From Bipalium vagum (lineage: Eukaryota), in NCBI GenBank assembly GCA_037834085.1, contig JBBMKC010193942.1:1-36850 (forward strand): a DNA stretch of 36,850 nt. Reading direction: 5' to 3'. Below are positions 5,509 to 36,850 of this stretch, in pieces. Each line of letters opens with the position of its first letter. The stretch's first letter is position 1. Position numbers and translations under genes: made by a program. Below the pieces are notes generated by a model. The model was not told the origin of the DNA and made no database searches. It worked only from the letters and a program-made list of their open reading frames with translations.

Positions 5509-9748
<4,240 letters not shown>

Positions 9749-13760: not shown

Positions 13761-15602
13761 TAATGGAAACTTAAAAACATCTTAACTTATGCCTCATAGA
13801 ATATTCTCTTGTTTAAATATTCTATTTTTTATCTAATTTTTAGAGAGATAAATGAACATTGTTGTTATTTAATTATACGATATTTAATAATAAATACGCG
13901 CAAGTCAAAGACAATTAAAAAATTGATTAAGCAAAACAATGAATAATTGTTATGGCCAATTTCTGACAACTGAACGTTAATTTGTCTCTTTGTAAACCAA
14001 CATTCTTTCGTTAACTGACATTTTCAGGGTGAAATGAAATCTGAATTTGTTAGAGCTAATTTGTTATTAAAAACTATTACCTGAAATATTAGCTAAAAAT
14101 AGTATTAGAAAGTAATAGAAGTGAAAACTATAGATTTTTTCATCACTGTTATTGTTATTATTTATTATTATTATTCATTTTATTAATATTATCACTTATT
14201 ATTGGTGTTATTATTATTAATATTATTATTACTATTTTTAAAATCTTCATATTGTCATTAATTTTAGTTTTTTACCCTTACTTTTATTTTAATTATTTCT
14301 TAATAAAGTAGTTTAGTTAGACAACTTAATTTAGATATCAACCTTGAAATTATTTATATTTATTTACTCTGTTCATTCAGAAAATGATTAATTTCTCTTA
14401 GAAAATAGAATATTATTAAAAGACCTATCATTAATTTTCCAGTATAAATTAATTTAATTTAATTTTTAATAAGAAAATTATAATTTTCTTAGAAATGAAC
14501 AGCTCGTTTGCATTTATCAAAATTATACTTATAAATCGGAATGAAAATTGGAACATTTTGAAACACATTTCATAATATAGTCCCACAACTAATTTTGGTA
14601 ATTGACAAGACCTTTGATCCTTATATACCAAAATGTATATAAAGTGGTCAGAAACTCTCTAAATTGTTTAAAATTTTTTGGAAACATCATAAAAACATTT
14701 TAAAGAAATTCTGTTAAATTCTTTACTTAAATTCAGAGATAATTCACAGAATAAAAATTATAAAAATATAATATTTACTAATCATTTCCAAGGAATCGAT
14801 GAAGTAGTTATTAAGATAAGATGTTGACGCTTTTTCATTATTCTTAATTTATGTCACTTACAAATGTATTATAACTACATTTTGTTAATTATATTACCCT
14901 GTTATAATCGTTTTAAACTCATATATACGGTTTCGAAATAATATTATTTTCTGTATTTTTTAATATTATTAATAATAAAATAATAATACAAGTATTCTTC
15001 CCTAGGTCAATGAACCGCACATTTTATTAAGGTTGTTTTCTTCGTTACTTTTAATGGAACAAGATTAAATATTTTAAAGATTTATGAAAGTTGTAACAGC
15101 ATTCAAACAATAAATTAAATCTTTTGTTACTTTCAGATATTGATATAAGTGAACATTGTCTTCGCCTTCAATTTTAGCTCAATTTTTTAATGTATTTAAC
15201 AATAAAAAACTAATTCAAAAAGATGTTTAATTTTTATTAATTAATTAATTTTAATTTAATTATTTTTTAATTAAATTTCAATCTTAAAATAAAACAAAAA
15301 TGTATTCTTTTATTAAATTAATTTATCTGCTCTATTGAAAATGGTGAATAAAATAATTTACTAATTATACCAATATTATATTTAAAGCCGAGTGATAATA
15401 ATAATATGCAAAATTAATTGATATATTCAGTGTAAATAATATAAATGTTTAAAACGTGTGTCTTAGCTACAGAGAAAAGTTAAGCAAGCCTTATACATCA
15501 ATATATCATTACAAGTTAAGTGAAGCTATTTCTTGATAAATATTTGCTGTTTCATATTAATTTTATTTTTGATTACTTTATGAGTGCATCATCACTTTAA
15601 CA

Positions 15603-16502
15603 ATGGATAGTCCACAATGGTACAATCGGAAATTATGGAATACTTCCAGCCAGTCGATTGATGGAAAACCGGTACGATCTCGGAGTGCTATGTACACTGC
15701 TAGACGAATGGGATCCACATCTCAATCCATGTCGGGAACATTAACAAATCATTTGACAGTAACCAATTTGATTCTTCCAAACAAAAGTAAAGAACTTACA
15801 TATAAATATCTTTTGAATAATAAACCTCAAAAATCCACAACCAGCAGCCCTTTGTATTCTTTATCACCAAATTATTTCATTAATTTTTCTTCACCTAAAA
15901 ATTTCGTAAGAAAAGCCGATTCATTAACTCCATCTGAAATTTTATCATTTCAAAATAAGCCTGTGACTTTTCGTTATAAATATCCAAACATTCAGAATGA
16001 AACAAGACCCTTTGGAGCTCAACATTCCTCTAAACCCTTGTCATCGCAACCTGTGGAATACGACCCGGTCATTTATCCTCTGACAAAAATGTCCGATACT
16101 TCAATTGTTCATCCTAAATCAGATAAAGATCGAATTGACAATTCAGAAACAAAATTAATACCAAAAAATCAACCTGACGAACAACCTTCACGATCAGTAA
16201 TCAGTTCAAATCCAAGTCCGTTAAACATAGAAAATTATAACTCAGTTGAAACTTCTAGTCAAATTAGTTATCCAAAAAAATCTATTTTGAAAAAACCTGC
16301 AAACATTGTGCATTATTCTAACATTTTTCGAAATTCTAATACAAGAATATTGAGTGCCTCTTTGAAGCCCTTACCTTCATCGGAACCTTTAAATAAACCA
16401 TACCATATCAGAAACCAGTTACAGTCTGCTCCTGGGACCAAAAGAGAAGTTAGGTTTGATATGGATAGTAACAATATAATAGAATATTCAGAAATTGACT
16501 GA
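15603..16502 (+). CDS. Intronless 299-aa Ser/Pro/Asn-rich protein of unknown family; candidate PP1 regulatory subunit
   Basis: The longest ORF in the window (900 nt, ATG to TGA), clearly less AT-rich than its flanks and with no TE motifs. Contains KSILKK (SILK, aa 227-230) and KREVRF (RVxF, aa 280-285), followed by II at aa 292-293. Confidence 0.8.
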   Translation: MDSPQWYNRKLWNTSSQSIDGKPVRSRSAMYTARRMGSTSQSMSGTLTNHLTVTNLILPNKSKELTYKYLLNNKPQKSTTSSPLYSLSPNYFINFSSPKNFVRKADSLTPSEILSFQNKPVTFRYKYPNIQNETRPFGAQHSSKPLSSQPVEYDPVIYPLTKMSDTSIVHPKSDKDRIDNSETKLIPKNQPDEQPSRSVISSNPSPLNIENYNSVETSSQISYPKKSILKKPANIVHYSNIFRNSNTRILSASLKPLPSSEPLNKPYHIRNQLQSAPGTKREVRFDMDSNNIIEYSEID

Positions 16503-17620: not shown

Positions 17621-17849
17621 TAAAGTTTGCTTAAATATGTCAACTAATATTTATGGCTGTGGATTTGCAATTGATTTTTACAAATTGCATTTCAGAATCA
17701 TTTTATTGTTTTATTACCAAAAAGGTAAAAATACAATACAACCCTCAGAAATAAATTGTGTAACGTGTATGAAAAGGTGTACTTACAATATGATTCTGTC
17801 AAAAAAAGGTCTAAAAATTTCGTTCAGTAATTTCGAGCTTAAAAACAGT

Positions 17850-19068
17850 TTTGTCCCAAAAACACGCTAAATATGATGAGAAAACATTAAAATTCCTCGA
17901 AACAAACCACAAATTCTCGACACGAGATTTTGCTGCAGAAAAAAATCTCGGTAAATATTTACTTAATCTAATAACATGTGCCAAGCAATTTGTGCGTTGG
18001 AGAGTGCTATCAAATTCTCCTACACCTGACCTTACTGCCTCCGAATTATCATCAATTACATTGTGTGCATTTAAATTAAGGGAATTCCGCTTTAAATAAT
18101 AATCATTCATTGCATTAAAAATCCACAGAAATGTATACTTGTCTTCATTTTGGCAAAAGAAAATTTATGAACAAAAGAACGTACGATTTAGATCGGAAAA
18201 CCCGACAATGATTATAGGAAAAGAAACCACGTTCAATCTATACGTAGCATCAATATGTAAATTAATAGATTCACTAAACCAAAATATGTTTTTCATTGTT
18301 ATTAACACACGAATTTGATCTGAAGAATAGCACAATACAAATGGTTCATTTTCATCACTAAGCAAATTATTATTACATATTTCAATTAGATTTTCCCTAG
18401 ACAAATATTTCATTTTCATTATCAGTTTCATTTTTTTTCTGATTTTTATACTTAGATAACACATTGCTTATCTTTCTTAAAGGGACAGATATTTGTTAAT
18501 CAGAAAGTTGTTTCTAGATGTTAAAAATTCTCTTTATTCCTCTTTCGTGCATTTTGATAATTTTTTCTTTTAAAAGATTTGGATTGAGTACAATCAATCA
18601 ACTAATGCAATGCGAGGAATGATCAATGTCGTACAATCAATCGTAATAAACCACATAAGAAGTATAAAATAGGTAATTATTATCTTTTTTGTGTTAAGCG
18701 CACCCCTGCCTTGCTGATGATTTGTAAAAACAAAAATAACGCCAAAACGAGCCGATGAATGGCGAACACTTGAAGTATCAGATGAGTGAAAAGGAAATCT
18801 TAAAACAAATGGAAAAATTAAAACCACAACCGAAAGATGATGTGAAAGTTTCAATTAAAATAAATGTTGATTTTGTTATGTTACCAGTATTTTTATCATA
18901 GGCAATTCTTAAATCAGCTTGACAATGAGCTTTCAATTTATTACAACAATAATATAAAACTGTTGTAAAATTAACTAGATTATTGCACTATCTAATTCTC
19001 CAAAGGTCATTATTGTGATCATAATTTTTATGTTCTATTACTTTCCATTGTATTCGGCCTGAAGTCAT
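17850..19068 (-). mobile_element. Decayed Mutator-like (MULE) transposase, interrupted by an insertion at about 18595-18835
   Basis: N-terminal WRKY/FLYWCH-like zinc finger (MTSGRIQWK...LYYCCNKLKAHCQADLRI from ATG 19068), first-D motif NLHIDATYRLNVVSFPIIIVGFSDLNRTF (ORF 18165-18464) and second-D plus CxxH motif VIDDNSEAVRSG...RTNCLAHVIR (ORF 17811-18110). Stops and frameshifts throughout. Confidence 0.88.
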
Positions 19069-22687: not shown

Positions 22688-25600
22688 ATGACAACCAGAA
22701 ATTACAAGATCGTAATGACTCCTTCTCAAAAGTTGAATGTCAAAACAATTAAAGTCGAACGATTATATGACATTGATATGGCAAATGTTTATTTAGAAGC
22801 ACAAGGAAAACATTCAGGATTAATTATTAATAAAGAAGAAAAAAATGATAAAGAAGATAAAATTCCACAAGAGATGCAGTTAGAGTTTACATGCATGATG
22901 CGAAATGAAACCTCCGGAGACACTTATGCGGTACTTTATTTATTTTACTTTCTTATAATTTTATTTTGTTGTACAGGAAAACAGACGATTAAAATTCTGG
23001 TTTATTGAAAATTTAAAGCAAATGGAAAAATTAGATGTATCTTATGAGTTTTTTAAGGAATTAATAAATCCGAAAGATTTTCCAAAGGGTAATTAATATA
23101 ATTTACTAACTCATTTTATGATAAATCATTAGATTATCCAAATTTTGTGAAAAAAGTTATGAAACAAATGCAAATAGAAAGGTTTTCAAAACTGAAGCGA
23201 GTAGATATTGATTTTATCACCTTAAACAAACAGGAACAAGATGCTCTTGTGCCTCGTATGATTTTTTTTTCATTTATAAATACTCATGTATATTTTAATC
23301 TTAAAGACATTCTAATGAAACTTTCCTTGATTTTTATTTATTGAATTTTAGATCCAATTATTAACCGAGTTTGTGAATAATAATAATAATTTATTTTTAT
23401 ATTTAGTCTAAGCCATTGTTTCTAATTATTAAGAGATTTGTTAATTAATGGGAAACAAGTGAAAGTGAATACTTCCAAAATTGTGACATTTTAACAATAT
23501 CGATTTAAGTATTGTAAAATCGCTAAATTAATTTGTGATATATGAACATGTCTGATTCCAGACTGAAGTCAATTGTTTAGTGTTAAATTAAGGTTTCAGA
23601 TCGAATTTTTTTTTCGATCTCTTAGGTCACCGTTGATGATTGAAAATGTCACAAAATCAAACATATCCCCCTCTTTATATTTCTTTGCAGTTGTCTTTAA
23701 TGTCAAGTCCTGTCATACATTGACTGTGATATTTTTAAATCGGTTAAACTCTGTTATTAAGTGCTGTTTTTCATTATTTATCAATTATTATTAAAAGTAT
23801 TTCTGGTTCATGTGAGGATCTGTAAAAGGGTGATACAAATTCATTGATCCGATATTTTTGATCAAGATCAGTAATCAGAATTGTGCTCGTATCCGCAGAG
23901 TAAAAATATTTTGACAGAAAAAACTTAATTTTTAGTAACAATTGATGAAATATTCACATTGGGTTTTTGTTAATGATTTCCATTATGTTATCTTCACCAC
24001 TGTTAGGATTGAGAATTTTTCAATCATGTCTACAATAATTAAACCAGTTATTGTCCTTTCATAGAGCATTTCATTTGTTTATATTCTAGAGTTTTTGCTA
24101 TAACAAAAAATCGGTTAAATATTCTCTTTAAATCGCTATTTCTGTTATCAATGTTGTGAACTTTCTATTGTTCCCACTACCTTTCCGTTTGTTGATCGTA
24201 TATCGAGTTTAATAGTGACATAATATGGACATTGCACTATTTCTTCGTCTCGTGCAAAACCTTTTTGGTTTTAATCAATCAATCTTTAAGTAATTTTCAA
24301 TAAATAACATTCTTGACCAATTAATTTTTTGTCTTTTAAATATTTTTTAGTTGATGTCAGTAATACATCGATTTCGCTTTTTTATCTCCCCAAAATGTTC
24401 TGGATTATTGTGTGCGATTGAACCGATCTGTAAAACTTTCAATGCCAATTATAATGTTCCATTTTTCTTTTAGTTTCTGTAAAAGACAATATTATGTTGA
24501 GATTGAAAATCAATATTTCCCTTTGTATTTGTTTTGTTTGTATGGGTTGTTTTCGAATCTAAATCTTGGAAAAATTGTAATTGTTTCATTGATTTCAATT
24601 TTAATTGATTAATTAACCTATTTCTTTTTTCTGATGATTGTTGAAATGAGACATTGTTTTGTGAGTACAGATTCAGCGCTCTTTTTTCATAAAGATCTAA
24701 CAATAAATGCAAAAACATTGTAATGGCATTGTTTAAGCAACTTGATTTGCTCAATGTAATCACTGTAAGCATAACTCCTAATCGATTTTTTCCATTCTTT
24801 CCAACCATTTCGATGTGAATATTTACTGATTCAAATTATCCTAGCACTGATTAGAAATTTTTCATTTTAGCAGTGGAAAATGTTCAAGAAAATTCAGTAG
24901 AAATAGGAATTTCCTCCTACTGCTTTCCTTCTTCCTGTCTCATTTAAAACTTGATAAAGATATCGATTATGTTCTCTTGTGTCTTGTTTTCAGTCAAATC
25001 ACAAAAGTAATTTTACGGCTTCTACATTACTTTGATCACTGAACCGTCATGATTTACTCATGCTTATTTACTTTTGTATCAAAATCAATAATAAAAGAAA
25101 AACCTTTGCCACTGATAGTTATAATGGAAAACTAGGCTAAATGTCCTGTTTACAGATGTGCAGATGACGCCAAGATGAACAAACTCTCAACCTCTAATGA
25201 TAATAACGCGTGTGCTTTAATAATATGGTTAAAAAAACAAAGGTCGTCACAAATTACTTAGATAAACATCTCTGTTCCTCGTTTTCCACATAATCTTAAA
25301 CGATAATTTGCATAAGTTGGCATGGTATATGAGACTATATAGACTATTACTAATCAATTCAAGAATGGAGTCGGTCTGTGTTTCGCCTTTGCTCTAAGTT
25401 AATAATAATAATAATTATTATTATTATTATCGGTTATTCTTGAACAACGATAACATTTCTACAAACAAACATCCGCTGAGTCTTACATCATGATATTACA
25501 TAACACCGAAAATTTTGTTGATGTAAAATCCTCTAACGATTTACTTGCCAAATGTGTTCTGATAGATTGTATACCGATTAAAAACGATATGGATTTATAC

Positions 25601-28600
25601 TTAACAATTTTGACTAAATTTGTTCCTTGGCAAATATTGGGAAAACGAAATATCTGATTATGGCCACTTCTTTTTCAATATTCATTTTTTGATAATTGAT
25701 TTAGATTTTTAATTATTTATATAATTTTATGTATTGAAATCGATTAGAAGTTGATTCCGTACAAAAGGGTATGGTTTAATTTCGATTTTCTTTTTTAAAT
25801 TTTTGTATCGTCATTTTTTCTTGTTTTGTCGGTTTGGTTTGGTTTGAATTTTCTATTATGATTAATGATTTTTATTATAATTATTACTAGTACCAAGTTT
25901 GCTTTAATATTTTTCATTTTGAACCTTTTTTCGTATTAGAGTTACAGAAATCCGGTTAGTGAAAAATATTTCTTGTGTGATATAATTTTGGTTTTGTTTT
26001 GACTGTGCGGTGTTTGTTTATTTTTGTCGATTTCTATTTTATATTTATATATATTGATTTGGGTATCCATGTAAAAAATAGTTTTTGCATGAATGTTGTA
26101 TCAGAATTATTTCGATATTTACTAATTTTCTTGCATTGATTTGATGACACGTTCTTTTCCTTCATTTTCGTTTTTTAGCATGTCTTCCTTTTTTTCTTTT
26201 CTCTACTTTTATCTTTGTGCTTATTAATAATCATCAAAATGTCATAAATCGATTTTTTCTATTTGATGTTGTGCATTCAATTTTGTTGATAATTCAATCC
26301 TCACAATTGTTCTCAGTTAATCTGTGAACAAAAAAATCAAGAAATTGATTCTCACAATTACACAATAGTGCACAATGAAGTAATTAGAACTGACTTCGTG
26401 CCTAACTTTGTCCGGAAGGTTATCAAATCAATTGCCACTTACTCTATTATATTATACTTGCTACAATATCTAATGGCACACAGGCACACCGAACACACCG
26501 CCAAAGTCATTCTCTGCCTTAGCAGAGATCACTGGCCATTACTATTTAATTATAACATTTATTATATTTTTAATTAAAATTTTATTAACGATTCTCTTAC
26601 TGTTTTCTATTTTATTGACATTATATATTTTGATTATTATTATTATTATTATTTCTTTGGTCATATAATCGTCAAATTGTATCGATTTTGAGAACGGTGG
26701 AATGATGAATCACTATTTCATTACGCTATCTCTACCGCCTAAGATCGATGGAGATGAGTCACTCACATAATCTTGATTCATCATAACCTGTGGCTGTGTG
26801 AGTAGCTGGTCTTTGTATTATATTATTATAATATTAATAATAAATAATATTAATAATCTTAATTATTATCGTCATCATATCACTTGTAATATCTTTTATG
26901 GACTATAATGTACTAATGTCAATTATTATCAATGCAAAATACAACAATGTTTTCTGTTAAAAGTAGTATTAAAATCAATGGAATTGATTTTGTAAAGTAA
27001 TCTGTTTTATTTCCATATTACTATTTTTTAAAAAAATCAATTGATTCCCAATGACCTATTCACACAAAACCGTAACTGTTGTCATAATGATTAATTTGGG
27101 TAGGAGTTGAAGTGAAATCACCCGAGGTCGTGGTAAAAGAAAATTTACAAGCCCGTTTGGATGAGGCCTATCCAAACTGTTTGTCGATGGATGATCTGAT
27201 TCGGTAAGCTTTGCAATTAACTCGTTGCAGAGGCCAGGTATTTATTGTCTTTTGATTCTTACAGAATTCTCGAAACCAAAGAAGGCATCCTTAAACCGCA
27301 AATCGACGAGCTATTGGCAAAAGATGTCATAGAATTGGTGGTAATCGATGGTAAAGTTTCTGGATTCCGTCGGAAGATCTGTTATCACAATGAGGGTAAT
27401 TATTTTTAATCGGAATATTAAAAATATCATTTTACCTTTGACATTGCGATGTTTTAAAGACAATATGAACGATTTTCATGTTTACTAAATTAAAAGACCA
27501 ATTATTAACTTTTTATTGAATAATATTTAATTCTGAAATAATATTAATTGATGAATTTTTTTATTGATTCATATATATATATCGAGTTTTATATTATTTC
27601 ACTAAAGTCGAGTTCCACGGTTAATTGTAAATCGATGAGAAAATTTTATAAAATTGTCATTGGACCGGTTTTGATGTTCACTTGTCATTGAAATCTCTTT
27701 GGGAAACTTGTGTACAACTTTTACACACGGCATTTGATGGAGAATTGGCACCCGGATCTCCACAGTTATTTTTACCGTGTTTCTGTGATGATATTGAATT
27801 GTCAGTTGTGTTTTTTCGATATTTCTCTCACGTATTCGTGGTCAGTGGAGATGGAAATATAAAGCGTGTAAATATCTATATTATATGCATTCATTCAACT
27901 ATAAATATTTCTACTTGTTGCGAGATTTTTTCATTTGTCGGTCACCATGGTGATGATACATCATTGCAATGTGGTTTATAATAAAGTGATATATAATAAT
28001 ATCATGTCACAAAATGAAGTTGTTAAGGGTCTATAAAATCAAATTACGTACAGAGTTCCTTGGCAGAAGGATTCCCTTTCAAACCAGCTATTGGTTGTAT
28101 AATATTTTCTTATTAAGTTTCAATTTTTTGGTAATTAAAAGTTATTTAAACAAGAGAAGTAAGACATTCCTAAAATACTTCTTTAGCTCTTCAGTTTGAT
28201 TTTTTCATTCATTCTAAAATTACGAATATTATAAAATTCTGTTAAAAATATTATCATCAAAAGTCCAGAATATTATCTAATCCATTTGGAATTATTAATT
28301 ATTTGAATAAAACTTGAATTTAGTAATTAAAAAGAATGCAGAACCTATTCAACAATATAATAGGTCATTATTTATTTTTCGTTTTGTTAATCAGATCGAA
28401 GTATTCAGGGTTATTTCCTAAGATCAATTTACCCTAAAGATTGAAGTTTTGAAAGAAAAATACTAGAAATATTGGAAAAATATCTAAAGTCCAATATCAG
28501 AAATGCATGTAATAATGGAAAAATCAATGAGCTAAGTGTTTTCTGATGGATGAAAATAAAAATTAAACCAAAATGCTTTTTTTTATTACCTGATTCAGAA

Positions 28601-31600
28601 TTTATTTGAAATTTAATTTAATTAATGGTAACGGAAAATATTTTAGATGTGAAAGTTGTCAAGGAAACGGATCAAATGCAAAAAATATTCCAAAAAGAAA
28701 AACCAACTGTTGCCATTATCACAAATTTACTTTGTGAAAAACTGGCGGTCGATGCCATGATGACAGACAAGACAACATTTGTCAAGTTTGAAGGTTGGTG
28801 GAATCGACAAATCATTAATTTTGGAACTATTAATATTGGGATCATTTTTGGTTTCAGGTGAATCTCACGTGTACACAATCGGAAGAATCGGTAATAAAAA
28901 AGTCATCAGTACCAAAGTGGCGATGGTGGGTCGGGAACTGAAAGCAAGAATCTCATCTGCAAATACAACTACTCGACTATTGGGTAATTATTTATTGATC
29001 AATTTCCGAGTTGTAAATAATAAGTCGATAATATTTTAACAATGACATTTGTCCTTTTTGTAAAACATTTGATTCTGCTTGAAATCGTTGACCGAGTATT
29101 CCGTTAATCGTTCTCACAGATGTTACAGAGCTGCTAAGGCGCTTAAAACTGTCGGCATTATCAGACGACTTTATTCTATTGTTGAATTATCAAAAACTAT
29201 TGATTTTTACTGCATACCAAAATTTGATTCCATTGAACCAAGAAGACGTTGATGTTGTGTGTCAGTGTTTGGTTTGCTGTCTGCTCTCTCTGTCTGTCAC
29301 TGAGACCGTTTTCTGGTGATGAATTAGATATCAGTCTGAACATTTATTATTTTATTATTATTATTTTACTATAAATAATTATTTTAATTATTCCTATATA
29401 GCAATTGATTATATTAGTATAATTGTTAATGTATCAATGTGATACTTATTTATTGAAAATTTTCTATTAATTATTATTATTTATTCTAATCAAAGATTTA
29501 TTGATTTCATTCAAAAACCGAGATTTAGTTTTCAACGAGGTTTACTTTCATAAAATCAAGAGGCTTGGTATTAAAGAACTTCGAAATTTAATAATAAATC
29601 AATATTATAAAAATAATTTTTGGCACCTTATTTTCATTTCCTTTTGAAATTATTTATAGGAATTGTGTCATGAATTCGTTTCTTTGATAATTGATTTGCA
29701 TGTTATTCACTAAATTATTATTCATAATTGTATTATTATTATCTTTACGAGATTATTTGTACAAGTGAAAGTAAATTTTCTGTTGGTTATGAAAGACACG
29801 TGAGCCCTGACATTATTCTGATGAAAAAGAATGCCTTTCAGATTAGTCAATGCAGAAAAATATTAAAAACTCTTCGAATTTATGATACAACGATATTTAA
29901 TTTCTTTTTGTGGGAAATATTGATATATAAAACTAATATATTTTTTATCGATCTTATAATAATCAAATTTAAATATATTTTTATCAATATTGGTTCAACC
30001 CTGATCTTGTTTTCCTGAATTATTATTCATTATTGACATTTTAACATATATTTTTCTTTATGGGTTTTTTTGTAATTGATTTTTCAATTTTCCCATTTTA
30101 TAATTATCGATATTGATTCTTCTAATCCGGTGTTATTTAGGAAAATTGTACATTTTTCAAAAAAGTGACTTAGTTGAGATGGACAAGTTCAATTTTTCTG
30201 GTCCATTTAGGTCTTAACTTTCTCGAGAAGGTTAACTGAAATCCATATTTTCAATGATCAATGACATTTTATTTATTCTTTCTTGGACTACTTGGTGTGT
30301 GTTATGGGGTCTAATACATGAGATGATTGATTCTATCCAATTTCAAAGAAAGGTCCCTTTTTCGATAAATTAAACACAGATTTTCTCTTAATACACGATT
30401 ATTCTTCGATGTTCTACTTCAGAATAGTTATCATTTCTTTAATATAACAAGTCTGGAATTGTCAAATGTCATTAATTTTCAGTGTCTTTATTTCTATGAC
30501 TGCTAAATAAATTGATCTTTGATTTTTTTCGATTTCTAACCATTGTTGTCAGGCAGTCTAATTATTGCAGCTTTTTTGTGACAATAATAAATTTTTGGTT
30601 GTTTATCGGACATGATTAATTCACTCTTTTTTACCTTCATCATCAGGTACTTTCCAAGACGTACAACATGTTCTTGTAGTTGGAGTTGGAGGAAGTGTTC
30701 CCCATGTATACGAGTTTGACAAACACAGTCGTCTTGGTGATATCGTCGTTTCTTATCCCAACGATAACGGATCGGTTTACATATTTTGTGAAAAGCTCCA
30801 TTTGTTGGAGAATAGCCGTGATCCATTTAACACGGCCACGTTTGAGATAAAAGATTTTAAGTTCACCGATAAAACTTTGCAAAAGTTAGTTTGATTTTAT
30901 AATGGAAAAATTTCTGCAACATTGTTTTATTTCGGTTTCGAATTTCAGAGTTATTGATGATGTATTGGACACTTTTGAAAACGATCCGAAATCGTGTGAA
31001 TGGTACCGCTACATGCAAGAGGTGCTGCCCGAGCTGCAAATGTCCGATATCGATTTCAATAGGCCTCCAGCCGATACCGATAAACTAAAGTTGAAGGTAA
31101 GCAGAAATTTGTTGATATAGATTTTTTTTATTATCATTATTGATCTTTAATTATTTATTTATTACTATTGCTAGGTGTCCGACAAAGTAGTATTCGATAT
31201 GAAACATCCAGAGGTTCCGAAAGAGTTGGAACATTTGTATTTTCCCGATTTCCCTGCGGTTCGTTTAGGAAGTATTGGGTCTGGTAGACCTGTCACTGAC
31301 GTTGATCTGATCAGAGACAGATTCTCTAAAGAAAACTGTTTGCTGGCTTATGATTCGGAATACGATCAGGTAATTAAATTGCGATTGATTTCTACACATA
31401 TGATCCGTGCTGAGAAAGTAAACTTATTCGTTATTTGTCAGAAATCGATATATAAACAATATTAGATCTTTCGATTTTGAGACTAAAAACATAGCCAATT
31501 ATTTTTATTCTTAATCAATCGATTTTTATTTATAAACTCAATAAATAATTATTTGATATCGTTTTTTTTTGAAGAATTGTGCGCGGCATTTTTTATTTAA

Positions 31601-31944
31601 AAATATTTGTGAGATCAGTAATTTTCGATATATTAATTAAATTCATTGTAATTGAATCGTGCTTTTTATATATTTTTAATTGATTTTCCGATTTTCCCAT
31701 TACATGATGAACAATATATCGATTATTTTTGTCAATTATTTTTTTGCACAAAATATATTTATTTTCCATCTCTCCCTTGTAGGTTCTCGATTCCATCAAA
31801 GGTAACGGTCTGAGAAGCTTTGCGCTTATTCGTGGAATTTCCGATTATATTGACGGCAGCACTGGCGGTCTTTGGCAACCTTATGCCTCATTGGCTGCAG
31901 CAGCATTCATGAAAGCCATCATTTTGAGATTAGTTATTAAATAA
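22688..31944 (+). CDS. Uncharacterised nucleoside phosphorylase (PNP_UDP_1/MTAN-like) domain protein with N-terminal extension and probable winged helix, 574 aa, 11 exons
   Basis: Exons 22688-22930, 22977-23088, 23133-23255, 27104-27203, 27265-27395, 28647-28793, 28858-28983, 30647-30884, 30949-31096, 31175-31369, 31783-31944 join in phase with GT-AG ends (1725 nt). Motifs: PTVAIITNLLCEKLAV; YTIGRIGNKKVI; VLVVGVGGSVP...RLGDIVVS; RLGSIGSG; LAYDSE; FALIRGISDY...WQPYASLAAAAFMKAII. Exons 4-5 (LDEAYPNCLSMDDLIRIL...IDELLAKDVIE...GFRR) look like a winged helix. Confidence 0.92.
23590..23780 (-). mobile_element. Possible CR1/L2-type LINE ORF2 C-terminal remnant
   Basis: The minus strand reads TTAKKYKEGDMFDFVTFSIING, loosely matching TLxxRRxRGDMIxxFKIIxG; very decayed. 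Confidence 0.3.
25100..25240 (+). mobile_element. Non-LTR reverse transcriptase fragment (YADD region)
   Basis: KPLPLIVIMEN*AKCPVYRCADDAKMNKL...ALIIW resembles GPLLFxIYINDL...YADDxK...W of CR1/Jockey-type RTs; lies in intron 3 of the phosphorylase-domain gene. Confidence 0.55.
26702..26784. promoter_or_regulatory. Cluster of AP-1-type motifs in intron 3 (putative enhancer or alternative promoter)
   Basis: TGAATCA 26706-26712, perfect TGAGTCA 26755-26761 and TGATTCA 26774-26780 within a GC-richer patch. Confidence 0.35.
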
Positions 31945-32654: not shown

Positions 32655-33210
32655 TTATTTCTTAACTTTTCCGAACAAGAATTTTGTAAAAGCCAGTTCT
32701 ATTGGGTTCATCATATAATATGGAGACAAGAATTTTAATTTAAAACCAAATTCACTATTAATGGTTTCTAAATCCTTTTGTTGATGAACCATTGCATTAT
32801 CTAATATTAAACATGCATTAGCTAGACCTTTAATATCACGTATTTCAATGAACAAATCCCTTAGATATTCACCAAAAATATCTCCATTCACTGTACTATT
32901 ATTAATAACTTTCGAATATACGATTCTATCTATTGAAAGCTCACAAATTAAGCTAACCGATCTATCTCTCACAATAGTTGAAATTACATTCGCTCTACTT
33001 CCACGTCAGATCTCGCCTGAAATCTTTTTAGATGAAGATTGAAAGATGATTCATCTATAAAAATTACATTGGAATAATTTTCTCTAAACTTGTTATTAAA
33101 CCATGTCACACAATTTCTTCTTTTTTCCATGGTTTTATCAGCATTTACTGATTCTAGGTCTCTTAAATAAAAGTGGAGCGAGTTAAGAGCTTAACGGTTA
33201 AAAGTTTTTC
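32655..33210 (-). mobile_element. Decayed IS630/Tc1-superfamily (DDE_3) transposase
   Basis: The minus strand reads RDLESVNADKTMEK...ENYSNVIFIDESSFNLH...RSVSLI...ACLILDNAMVH...KFLSPYYMMNPIELAF, containing all three D, D and E motifs. Frameshifted; no TIRs identified. Confidence 0.88.
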
Positions 33211-34140: not shown

Positions 34141-35254
34141 CAGTGCGCGCAAAAAGTCTGTTCATCCCCTATAAAAAATACTAATTTTAATTGAAAAAAA
34201 TATTTTAAACAACGAAATTTATTAAATGAACAAGTCTTAATATTGAATAGGATATCCCTTTGATTTCTTGACCAATTGTAATCTTTTGGGGATTGAATTC
34301 ACAATTTTCTTGCACGTGTTACGAGAAAGGTTGTACCATTTGTTTTGGATCTCATTCCATAAATCTTTAGCACAATTATGTTTTATTGGACTTAGTTGAC
34401 GCTTAAGGATACCCCAGATATTTTCTACGGGATTCAGGTCAGGAGAATTACGTGGCCAAGGTAAGACTTCAATATTTTTATTTCTTAGGAAAGCCTGGGT
34501 ACTTTTGGCCTCATGATGAGGAGTCAAATCTTGTTGAAAAACGAATGCTGCTTTTGGACAGACTAAGCATTTGCCAACTATATCTAAATCATGAAGTATG
34601 TCTTTTTGATATCTCTCGGCATTCATATTTCCATTGATTTTTTTAGAAGTCCAACTCCATTACTACTGAAGCAACCCCAGACATGAATGTATAGTCCTTT
34701 GAGCCGTTGATGCATTTTCAAATACGGCTTCTTAATTGCTGTATAACTTCGAAAACCATATTTTTTCAGAATTTTCTGAACGGTACTGACAGATACATTT
34801 CGGACATAACTTGAATTGTACCTATTGGTGATATAAAGAAAAGATGCAAAGTGGTTCGCTTTGAAAATGCGTCTTATAGCTCGTGAAGCTTGTGGTGAAA
34901 TAATAGTTGGTCTGCCGAACCTGTTTCAAGATATTTCTTCCAAATATATTGCATGCGTCTTGTTGTACTTTTCCAAGATTTGCTGACATATTTCAGTCCA
35001 AGAATTTCCATTATTCCGTAATGCAACAATGCAACATCTTTATAATTCTATTAAATTTCTAAAAATTTTATTTATCTAAAACAATAAATTTATACATTTT
35101 TGATAAATTTAATTTAAAAATATGTTATATTTGATTACATTATTTAAAAATCTTTACAAAAAGTTAATCTTTAAACAACTATTTATAATTAAATTGAAAT
35201 ATATATCAAAATTAGTATTTTTGATAGGGGGTGACAGACTTTTTACGCGCACTG
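34141..35254 (-). mobile_element. Tc1 (DD34E) transposon, internally deleted, with both TIRs and TA target duplication
   Basis: TIR CAGTGCGCG(C/T)AAAAAGTCTGT..CCCCTAT.AAAAATACTAATTTT at both ends, with TA at 34139-34140 and 35255-35256. ORF 34237-34626 has FQQD-34 aa-E (WPRNSPDLNPVENIW). IHVWGCFSSNGVG and the N-terminal GRPTIIS lie upstream; the first-D region is missing. Confidence 0.96.
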
Positions 35255-35748: not shown

Positions 35749-36453
35749 TTAAAGGTAAAAAATGTTTTTAAATAAAACTAATTTAAAATATACCACTTGT
35801 GAAGACTCCCACCTTCAGGCCAATCATATCAAGCGAACCCTTCAAAAACATCAATCCAACCAAATCAATCAAAGTCTTCAAAATAATAACATTTTAGCAT
35901 TGATTTTGAACATCTTTAGTGATCATTTACTGTTTCATTTCATGTACAAAAACAAAATATAATTCTGTGTAATTTTATTTATTTGTTTCATATAAGAGCT
36001 AAAACCCTGAGTTTGGTTTTAATAACTTTCCTTCCGTCTGTTTAATTAATAAAAAATACAAAATAGAATATAAAATATAAAATTATATTAAACAAAAAAA
36101 TAAAATAATATATAAAATATAAAAATTATTATTATTATAATTAATTTAAAAATTAATCATTTTGATGATTAATTTATAAAATATTTGGACAAAATCGTTT
36201 AGTAACATAGTTACTATAAATAATTTTTTCAATAAAAATTTTAATAATGTTACTATAAATAAATTTATAGTAAAAAATTTTTAAGTGGAATGTAAAAATA
36301 GTAACATAAAGTTGCTGTAAATAAAAATACAAGAAAATAAAATAATATAAATACTAAAGAGTTTCAGTATCAAAACACACAATATAAATACGAAAAGAAG
36401 TCTAGATGAATCAAGCGGTCAAGAAGACAACCAGACAAAATCCAGAGGAAAGC

Positions 36454-36582
36454 AGAACAATACTCAGAACCATACTCGGAACAATACTCAGAACAATATT
36501 AGGAACAAATTTCAGAACAATATTCGGAACAATATTCAGCATAAAATTCGGAACTCCACTCGGAACTCTACGAACAGTAATC
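36454..36582. repeat. 12-bp tandem repeat (RGAACAATAYTC) x about 10
   Basis: agaacaatactc agaaccatactc ggaacaatactc agaacaatatta ggaacaaatttc agaacaatattc ggaacaatattc agcataaaattc ggaactccactc... Confidence 0.92.
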
Positions 36583-36850
36583 ATACATCTCACGGTCCAG
36601 CATTCAAGGAAAAATAACTTTTAGTAAATTATTTTTATTGTTATAAGTTTATTAGATTTGACTACAAATTTAAATAGATTTTTAGTATTAATAAATTAAA
36701 TAAATATAAAATAATTTTGGGATTCACACTGCTCACAAGTGAACCGATATCCATATAAAAAATAATAATTAATAACAAAATTAAAAGCTATAATTCGATT
36801 ACGAATTATAAGTTATTAATTAAATTAAATAAATACTAAGAATTGGACAG

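Follow-up and report, generated by a model that had tools for sequence, protein, structure and literature searches.

A gene at positions 22688..31944 (+ strand) of a 36,850-nt stretch of DNA from the flatworm Bipalium vagum (contig JBBMKC010193942.1; this whole stretch is hereafter called the window) encodes a 574-aa protein with an N-terminal domain, a winged helix and a C-terminal PNP-like domain. The best explanation that we can offer, held tentatively and as a whole at slightly below an even chance, is an intact three-domain protein of the Cap17/fungal PNP_UDP clade, in which an adenine-nucleotide hydrolase would be held in check by the N-terminal and winged-helix domains and would serve routine nucleotide or energy control rather than Z-triggered defence. 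Taken part by part, an active enzyme is probable, a mainly non-immune role is somewhat favoured, and ATP or dATP as the substrate, argued by analogy, stands at even chances.

The placement of the PNP-like domain was assessed with a tree of 59 rows and 238 columns, consisting of 24 animal sequences, 11 fungal-type domains, 13 bacterial sequences and eight MtnN proteins, together with DeoD, Udp and Amn. The bacterial rows comprised DtcC-like receivers in Detocs-like operons, SAVED-PNP beside a cyclase of the cyclic-oligonucleotide-based antiphage signalling system (CBASS), HNH, TPR and AAA fusions and four actinobacterial rows. The fungal-type rows came from eight long proteins with multiple matches that did not look like family members, picked from the 150 best representatives; four bear fungal names, all eight carry PNP_UDP_1 and one (P0232) carries NB-ARC. 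XapA, a Bradyrhizobium row, L015, P0227 and P0276 were excluded, and the tree holds no eukaryotic MTAP, PNP or UPP rows. The animal sequences were monophyletic (support 100/100) and sister to the fungal-type domains (89/94), both lay inside the defence-associated group (91/87), and MtnN was separate (99/89); a grouping of the animal proteins with MtnN was rejected by the approximately unbiased (AU) test (p 0.023). The family profile gave bacterial defence-associated proteins 14-59 bits, MtnN 4-33 and DeoD, Udp and XapA at most 6, and the nearest matches outside the family were fungal-type PNP_UDP_1 proteins (E 1e-36 to 1e-30). An earlier note on this DNA, made from the sequence alone, had read the domain as a fungal NLR-type PNP_UDP domain rather than a housekeeping enzyme, and had named a grouping with housekeeping MTAN/MTAP clades as evidence to the contrary. 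Our results agree with its reading: the domain resembles the fungal NLR-type and bacterial defence PNP domains more than it does any of MtnN, DeoD, Udp and Amn, and tree and AU test both set it apart from MtnN. Its membership of the Cap17 clade is thus very likely.

Within the animals, the Bipalium protein groups with flatworms (100/98); a JGI protein is its sister, while the trematodes and cestode in the sample lie apart. The gene tree broadly tracks animal phylogeny. PADLOC profiles of the Cap17/DtcC type matched three of six family proteins weakly (E 4e-6 to 5e-3) and were set aside as non-discriminating, because the same Cap17-type model matches E. coli MtnN (1.8e-9). Also left aside were three genome-scan matches in bacterial bins (L007-L009), which look fungal (51-78% identity to a Penicillium protein); these PNP genes probably lie on fungal contigs or reflect a recent transfer.

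Residue columns were taken from an alignment to E. coli MtnN and counted in 97 homologues. E267 of the Bipalium protein falls on E12 of MtnN, D516-S517-E518 on E172-M173-E174, R538 on R193 and D542 on D197, with the MTAN columns E12, E174, R193 and D197 all present (E267, E518, R538, D542); E12 and D197 figure as mutant sites in the titles of PDB entries 1z5n and 1z5o. D542 is kept in all 97 homologues, E267 and D516 in 95 each, R538 in 92 and E518 in 79. Among 118 insect proteins, the E12 column is Glu and the D197 column Asp in every one, and the E174 column is Glu in 110 (five unparsed, three other). The D197 column would correspond to D472 of Cap17, and the catalytic Asp of the Cap17 clade is accordingly found in 97/97 homologues and 118/118 insect proteins. 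The putative catalytic Glu and Asp are therefore kept, as had been claimed from the Bipalium sequence. That the ribose-binding EME motif reads DSE was also correct, but the worry attached to it is weakened: E518 keeps the Glu of the Glu174 column, and DSE is the norm of the family. The MtnN pocket residues Met9, Phe151 and Met173 are replaced by Leu, Val and Ser in the Bipalium protein, the Phe151 column being aliphatic, a feature shared with fungal and defence domains, and the residue after GSG is basic in most homologues (R in 51, K in 32 of 97).

The gene model joins 11 GT-AG-spliced exons into 1725 nt, with a single stop at the end (ATG 22688, TAA 31944). Residues 8-571 align with single flatworm proteins at 46-55% identity, nine of them at 50-55%, and 145 of 309 fetched proteins cover the model end to end. 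Since the alignment to nine single flatworm-type proteins runs across residues 8-571, the model is not due to chance. The full-length homologues P0010 and P0019 are encoded on contigs of just 2052 and 2481 nt, which is consistent with spliced transcripts; exons 1-3 and 4-11 therefore form one protein in relatives, which speaks against the concern, raised in the earlier note, that they belong to separate transcripts. Its intact 11-exon, 574-aa gene is supported by the splice sites, the sole terminal stop and the full-length homologues. The exon junctions of the B. vagum gene are predicted from homology. Three contigs from sequencing run X1, possibly of the source sample, tile the region with a one-letter difference; they contain the introns, without exon joints, and are uninformative on splicing.

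Exon 1 (22688..22930, + strand like all that follow; aa 1-81, aligned to homologues), exon 2 (22977..23088, with a conserved E-x-R-x-L-x-F-W-F motif) and exon 3 (23133..23255) encode the N-terminal domain, which covers about aa 8-152. Intron 3 (23256..27103; 3848 nt, phase 1) falls in a linker that is an isoform-insert site in other species. Exon 4 (27104..27203) encodes the first half of the winged helix and by itself matches Pfam HTH_69 (E 0.016); exon 5 (27265..27395) encodes helix 3 and the wing, without the Asn/Tyr pair of Zalpha. The PNP/MTAN-fold domain starts in exon 6 (28647..28793), where E267 is encoded at 28736-28738, and continues after an intron (28794-28857) at the second insert site of the family into exon 7 (28858..28983), exon 8 (30647..30884, with the VGVGGSVP and RLGDIVVS motifs), exon 9 (30949..31096, the insertion region), exon 10 (31175..31369, with D516-S517-E518 at 31352-31360) and exon 11 (31783..31944, with R538, D542 at 31843-31845 and the stop codon). 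The motifs reported earlier are all in place on the + strand, starting at 28715 (IITNLLCE), 30679 (VGVGGSVP), 30730 (RLGDIVVS), 31828 (IRGISDY) and 31873 (WQPYAS). The C-terminal PNP domain is likewise present, but its size of about 330 aa is corrected here to about 316 aa (residues 256-571).

For structural comparison we folded P0019, the closest homologue (55% identical), with AlphaFold2 on the 97-sequence alignment (predicted local distance difference test score, pLDDT, 90.9; predicted template modelling score 0.87). The architecture is an N-terminal domain followed by the HTH_69 winged helix and the MTAN-fold domain. Residues ~256-595 of the model best match the MTAN structure 4l0m (Z score 22.8, root-mean-square deviation (rmsd) 3.1, 223 residues aligned; Foldseek E 1e-9), while neither Cap17 nor DtcC has an entry in the PDB match lists. 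Residues ~160-234 form the winged helix, in line with HTH_69 matches in all 83 members scanned (83 of the 97 aligned homologues were taken); PNP_UDP_1 was matched in 42 of the 83 at E≤0.5. Only these two families recur in the Pfam scans of members, which contain no NLR, Death, STING, TPALS, receiver or repeat domain. The winged-helix-like segment of the earlier note is thus a winged helix by both profile and modelled fold. Folded alone, the N-terminal domain of P0019 gives a confident alpha/beta model (pLDDT 91.6); it has no Foldseek match at E≤0.001 and no usable match in an ESM Atlas search, and its best hits in a VIA structure search are ribosomal small-subunit chains (Z 5.1, rmsd 3.4, 99 aligned), then T-fold proteins. 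These matches to the modelled domain are too weak to assign it, and do not thereby prove a new fold. Column conservation in the N-terminal domain (0.58) nearly equals that of the enzyme domain (0.61) and exceeds that of the winged helix (0.51).

By sequence comparison, the family is spread across the protostomes. A profile built from 11 flatworm-type homologues matched 896 of 8000 scored candidates (1060 of 8000 with a flea protein as query), and against 1.84 billion representatives it gave 6328 matches at E≤0.001 and 121 at ≤1e-30. End-to-end single-protein homologues occur in flatworms, molluscs, annelids, arthropods and nematodes; the named members come from trematodes, cestodes, Macrostomum, nemerteans, annelids, molluscs, one bryozoan, Seison, Priapulus, Gordionus, one tardigrade, nematodes, chelicerates and insects. 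They include Smp_068070 of Schistosoma mansoni, isoform X4 of Apis mellifera LOC551214 (A0A7M7MVI7), and proteins of Drosophila species and Caenorhabditis brenneri. Among the names in the best-120 match lists, in which many rows are nameless, there is no deuterostome, cnidarian or sponge, and no vertebrate protein among the named matches. Pairwise identity is 93% between Apis and Bombus, 58% between Apis and Drosophila and 72% between Schistosoma and Fasciola. All three domains are retained in the 24 of 24 animal rows examined, and profiles of the N-terminal domain and winged helix matched none of the 35 non-animal proteins of the set. C36B7.6, initially taken for the worm orthologue, is a CLPTM1 homologue and was dropped. 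AGAP000321 and PTHR47705 are presumably labels of this family; one paper lists AGAP000321 as overexpressed. In the chiton Liolophura (P0131) and in P0134, P0142 and P0147, a Methyltransf_FA (farnesoic acid O-methyltransferase-like) domain separates the N-terminal domain from the winged helix, and in P0263 the N-terminal domain stands in a context similar to these forms.

Part of this family has very probably been flagged before. Rousset et al. (10.1101/2023.01.24.525353) placed Q8MRM6 (CG12065), A0A7M7MVF0 (Apis) and H2L0A5 (H14E04.2) in the Cap17 clade, described a Zalpha-homologous domain in them and speculated that they degrade ATP once foreign nucleic acid is sensed. Their assays covered Cap17, DtcC and one domain each from a fungal NLR and a sponge, all four of which preferred ATP. 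It is very probable, judging from a shared architecture and from members in the same species or genera, that the Bipalium family is the one of CG12065 and H14E04.2. Hence the suggestion in the earlier note of an unannotated protostome family stands as to its range, given the named members, but the family was not unflagged, as fly, bee and worm proteins had been named. Its extension to flatworms and other lophotrochozoans appears to be new here, relative to the text of that work. H2L0A5, the C. elegans protein among those named, may be a poor enzyme model, nematode relatives having Gly at the Glu174 column.

In the mostly open-access literature we found no functional study of orthologues. Cited reports link ubiquitous CG12065 knockdown to altered diet-dependent body-size plasticity (PMC13232497), describe binding of an orthologue's mRNA by many RNA-binding proteins (PMC4617965) and B52-regulated splicing of CG12065 (PMC4274639), list H14E04.2 as a developmental cassette exon and regulated splicing target (PMC2265522), and include a family orthologue in a MYS-2 target list (PMC11363564).

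Alternative splicing also marks our own comparison of 20 isoform pairs, which are database predictions and may include some retained introns. In-frame inserts recur at two sites, and the remaining pairs differ at the termini or elsewhere. The linker that joins the N-terminal domain to the winged helix receives 4 aa in Schistosoma, 20 in Bombus, 8 in Saccostrea, 11 in Ylistrum and at least 125 in Octopus; the loop before GES-x-VYT receives 18 aa in Schistosoma, 19 in bees and 7 in Liolophura. Introns 3 and 6 of the Bipalium gene sit at these two sites. Two candidate 15-nt in-frame cassettes were found, at 25940-25954 (+) in intron 3 (splice score 16.7, equalled or exceeded in 2 of 100 shuffles) and at 28395-28409 (+) in intron 5 (splice score 18.3). 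A candidate 9-nt microexon at 24351-24359 fell outside the top five by splice-site score and was rejected. Cephalopod-type isoforms (P0053-P0056, P0104, P0106) have acidic repetitive linker inserts of up to ~480 aa, and isoform numbers at one Octopus locus run up to X48.

We then propose a mechanistic model. By MTAN chemistry, with residue roles that are partly our assumption (those of MtnN E174 and R193 in particular), D542 would protonate the adenine leaving group, E267 would activate water, and E518 and R538 would hold the ribose and the water, giving adenine and ribose phosphate as products. ATP is the proposed substrate by analogy with the clade members that Rousset et al. assayed, each of the four having preferred it. 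The N-terminal and winged-helix domains and the splice inserts may restrain the hydrolase, a proposal made because isolated clade domains are toxic. A domesticated, routine role is favoured because the family is conserved and descends near-vertically; conservation and near-vertical, low-copy descent suit a routine function no less than an immune one. The retention of all three domains and the body-size effect of CG12065 knockdown also count for a routine role. A bolder version, to which we give a small minority chance, is a protostome-ancestral switch for ATP destruction that arose from defence enzymes and is tripped through a 150-residue sensor domain of undescribed fold rather than by Z-nucleic acid, with conserved splicing at the linker and enzyme loop setting the threshold. 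If true, this switch would amount to an overlooked arm of cell-autonomous immunity, or of programmed energy collapse, in invertebrates.

Whether the winged helix could be a Zalpha domain, making the protein a Z-DNA/Z-RNA-sensing ATP nucleosidase as speculated by Rousset et al., depends on more than its fold. Residues 161-234 of the P0019 model match Zalpha structures at Z 9.8-10.6 (ZBP1 9j89, 10.6, with rmsd 2.0 and 64 aligned; viral 1sfu, 10.4; PKZ 4kmf, 10.3; 3irq, 9.8), and the wing residue at the Trp195-equivalent column, in a register that we partly assume, is aromatic in most homologues (F42, W29, Y17 of 97). However, MarR-type and other winged helices score just as well (10.9, 10.7 and 10.7). 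A register-free search of the helix-3 region for N-x-x-x-Y/F, the equivalents of N173/Y177, found it in 0/98 aligned and 0/118 insect proteins, and according to PMC11298590 winged helices bind Z-form nucleic acid only with N173/Y177. Fewer than two of the 83 members match Pfam z-alpha, and the net charge of the winged helix is -3 in Bipalium, -4 in the median and positive in just 3 of 97. The absence of the signature and the acidity, as read from the sequences, argue against the published Zalpha idea and against nucleic-acid binding generally, and leave Z sensing highly improbable. Nearly as improbable is an MTAN-like salvage enzyme acting on methylthioadenosine, S-adenosylhomocysteine or a nucleoside. 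MTANs are the top structure and sequence matches in the PDB, their catalytic columns are kept, and parasitic flatworms rely on purine salvage; but MTAN may lead by default, Cap17-type entries being missing from those lists, while the tree, the AU test and the altered Met9, Phe151 and Met173 columns separate the domain from MtnN, and the extra domains would be superfluous for salvage.

A pseudo-enzyme or nucleotide-sensing scaffold that binds an adenine nucleotide with little or no turnover is quite unlikely. It would account for the D-x-E in place of EME, for the family-wide loss of Met173 and for changes at E518 (Gly in 10, Asp in 5) and R538 (5) of the 97 homologues, and the large acidic or farnesoic acid O-methyltransferase-type inserts of mollusc forms suggest protein contacts. 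Against it, D542 is invariant and E267 nearly so while neighbouring columns vary, and Asp at the first EME position is also found in fungal-type domains. The remaining alternative, unlikely on balance but ahead of the other three, is an immune or stress effector in which infection or damage would activate an ATP nucleosidase via the N-terminal domain or a protein partner and not through Z-nucleic acid. The placement among defence PNP domains, the NB-ARC of the near outside match P0232, the ATP nucleosidase activity reported for Cap17, DtcC and the fungal NLR and sponge domains, and a multi-domain layout that suits a sensor-effector all favour it. So does the presence of CG12065 among the top 50 SUMO-enriched proteins after lipopolysaccharide (ratio 2.86; PMC4592996). 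Yet the architecture is fixed and the copy number apparently low across protostomes (judged from named matches, not a genome census), the Pfam scans show no NLR, Death or repeat domain, and the literature found reports no infection phenotype.

Several points weigh against the restrained, routinely acting hydrolase that we prefer. The enrichment after lipopolysaccharide leans towards immunity, the clade members assayed all belong to proteins of immune architecture, and no enzyme assay of any family member was present in the literature found. Conservation rate and copy number were judged without a control comparison to other genes, and autoinhibition is something that we only infer. The body-size effect is weak, since 68% of the candidates in PMC13232497 had some effect. 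The Met173 column is replaced throughout (T43, S21, A17 of 97), and the homologues with Gly for E518 include three named nematodes (P0152, P0156, P0162); such changes may mean that the specificity differs or that some lineages are inactive. In the tree, the two key branches (89/94, 91/87) fall short of the support at which branches are starred, a long stem (1.14) leads to the animal clade, the fungal rows were circularly chosen via the profile of the family itself, and stand-ins represent E. coli KTE188 Cap17 and V. alginolyticus DtcC.

Elsewhere in the window, a multi-exon gene for the cilia- and flagella-associated protein CFAP91 lies at 5588-9745 (+; Pfam CFAP91 E 3e-42 on 6290-6676), and a Ser/Pro-rich frame of 309 codons with no Pfam match, probably a single-exon gene or large exon, at 15573-16499 (+). 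Tc1/mariner-type transposase remnants (DDE_3, HTH_Tnp_Tc3_2) lie directly downstream of the gene at 32658-33005 and 34240-34925 (-), and a weak MULE transposase remnant (E 0.047) at 17814-18467 (-). A PDZ-like exon at 155-358 (-; E 0.003) belongs to a gene that extends beyond the window, and six-frame translation revealed a short tandem repeat tract at 36406-36621.

Together, our results identify the Bipalium gene as a further member of a flagged family, a published candidate for ATP-depleting immunity in animals, and add a broader taxonomic range, the finding that the Zalpha signature is missing, and an N-terminal domain without a clear match. Because the Glu174 equivalent has often been lost in nematodes, assays would do better to target fly or flatworm proteins; speculatively, and with no vertebrate among the named best-120 matches, the protein could be a parasite-selective target if essential. 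The arthropod and nematode Zalpha-PNP proteins of Rousset et al. share the winged helix and the Cap17-clade PNP domain and come from the same species or genera as ours. That they are the same proteins is a deduction, the Apis accession found here (A0A7M7MVI7) differing from the one named (A0A7M7MVF0); the accessible text of that work has no flatworms, molluscs or 150-aa N-terminal domain, and its Zalpha label is unsupported by our residue test. With MtnN/MTAN the family shares the fold (Z 22.8) and the E12, E174, R193 and D197 columns, but it has ~80-90 extra residues in the domain, replacements at Met9, Phe151 and Met173, and a separate clade. Fungal PNP_UDP_1 (PF01048) domains in tandem or NLR-associated form are its sister group and share RLGD-V-V, RG-I-x-DY, WQ-x-YA and long insertions; theirs are N-terminal or tandem with other partner domains, whereas the Bipalium family has one C-terminal PNP domain. 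With CBASS Cap17, Detocs DtcC, fungal NLRN and sponge DDAN it shares the clade (via stand-ins) and the catalytic Asp motif. In contrast to them it has no TPALS, receiver, NB-ARC or Death domain, it reads D-x-E instead of EME, its inheritance is stable and vertical, and its activity is a prediction.

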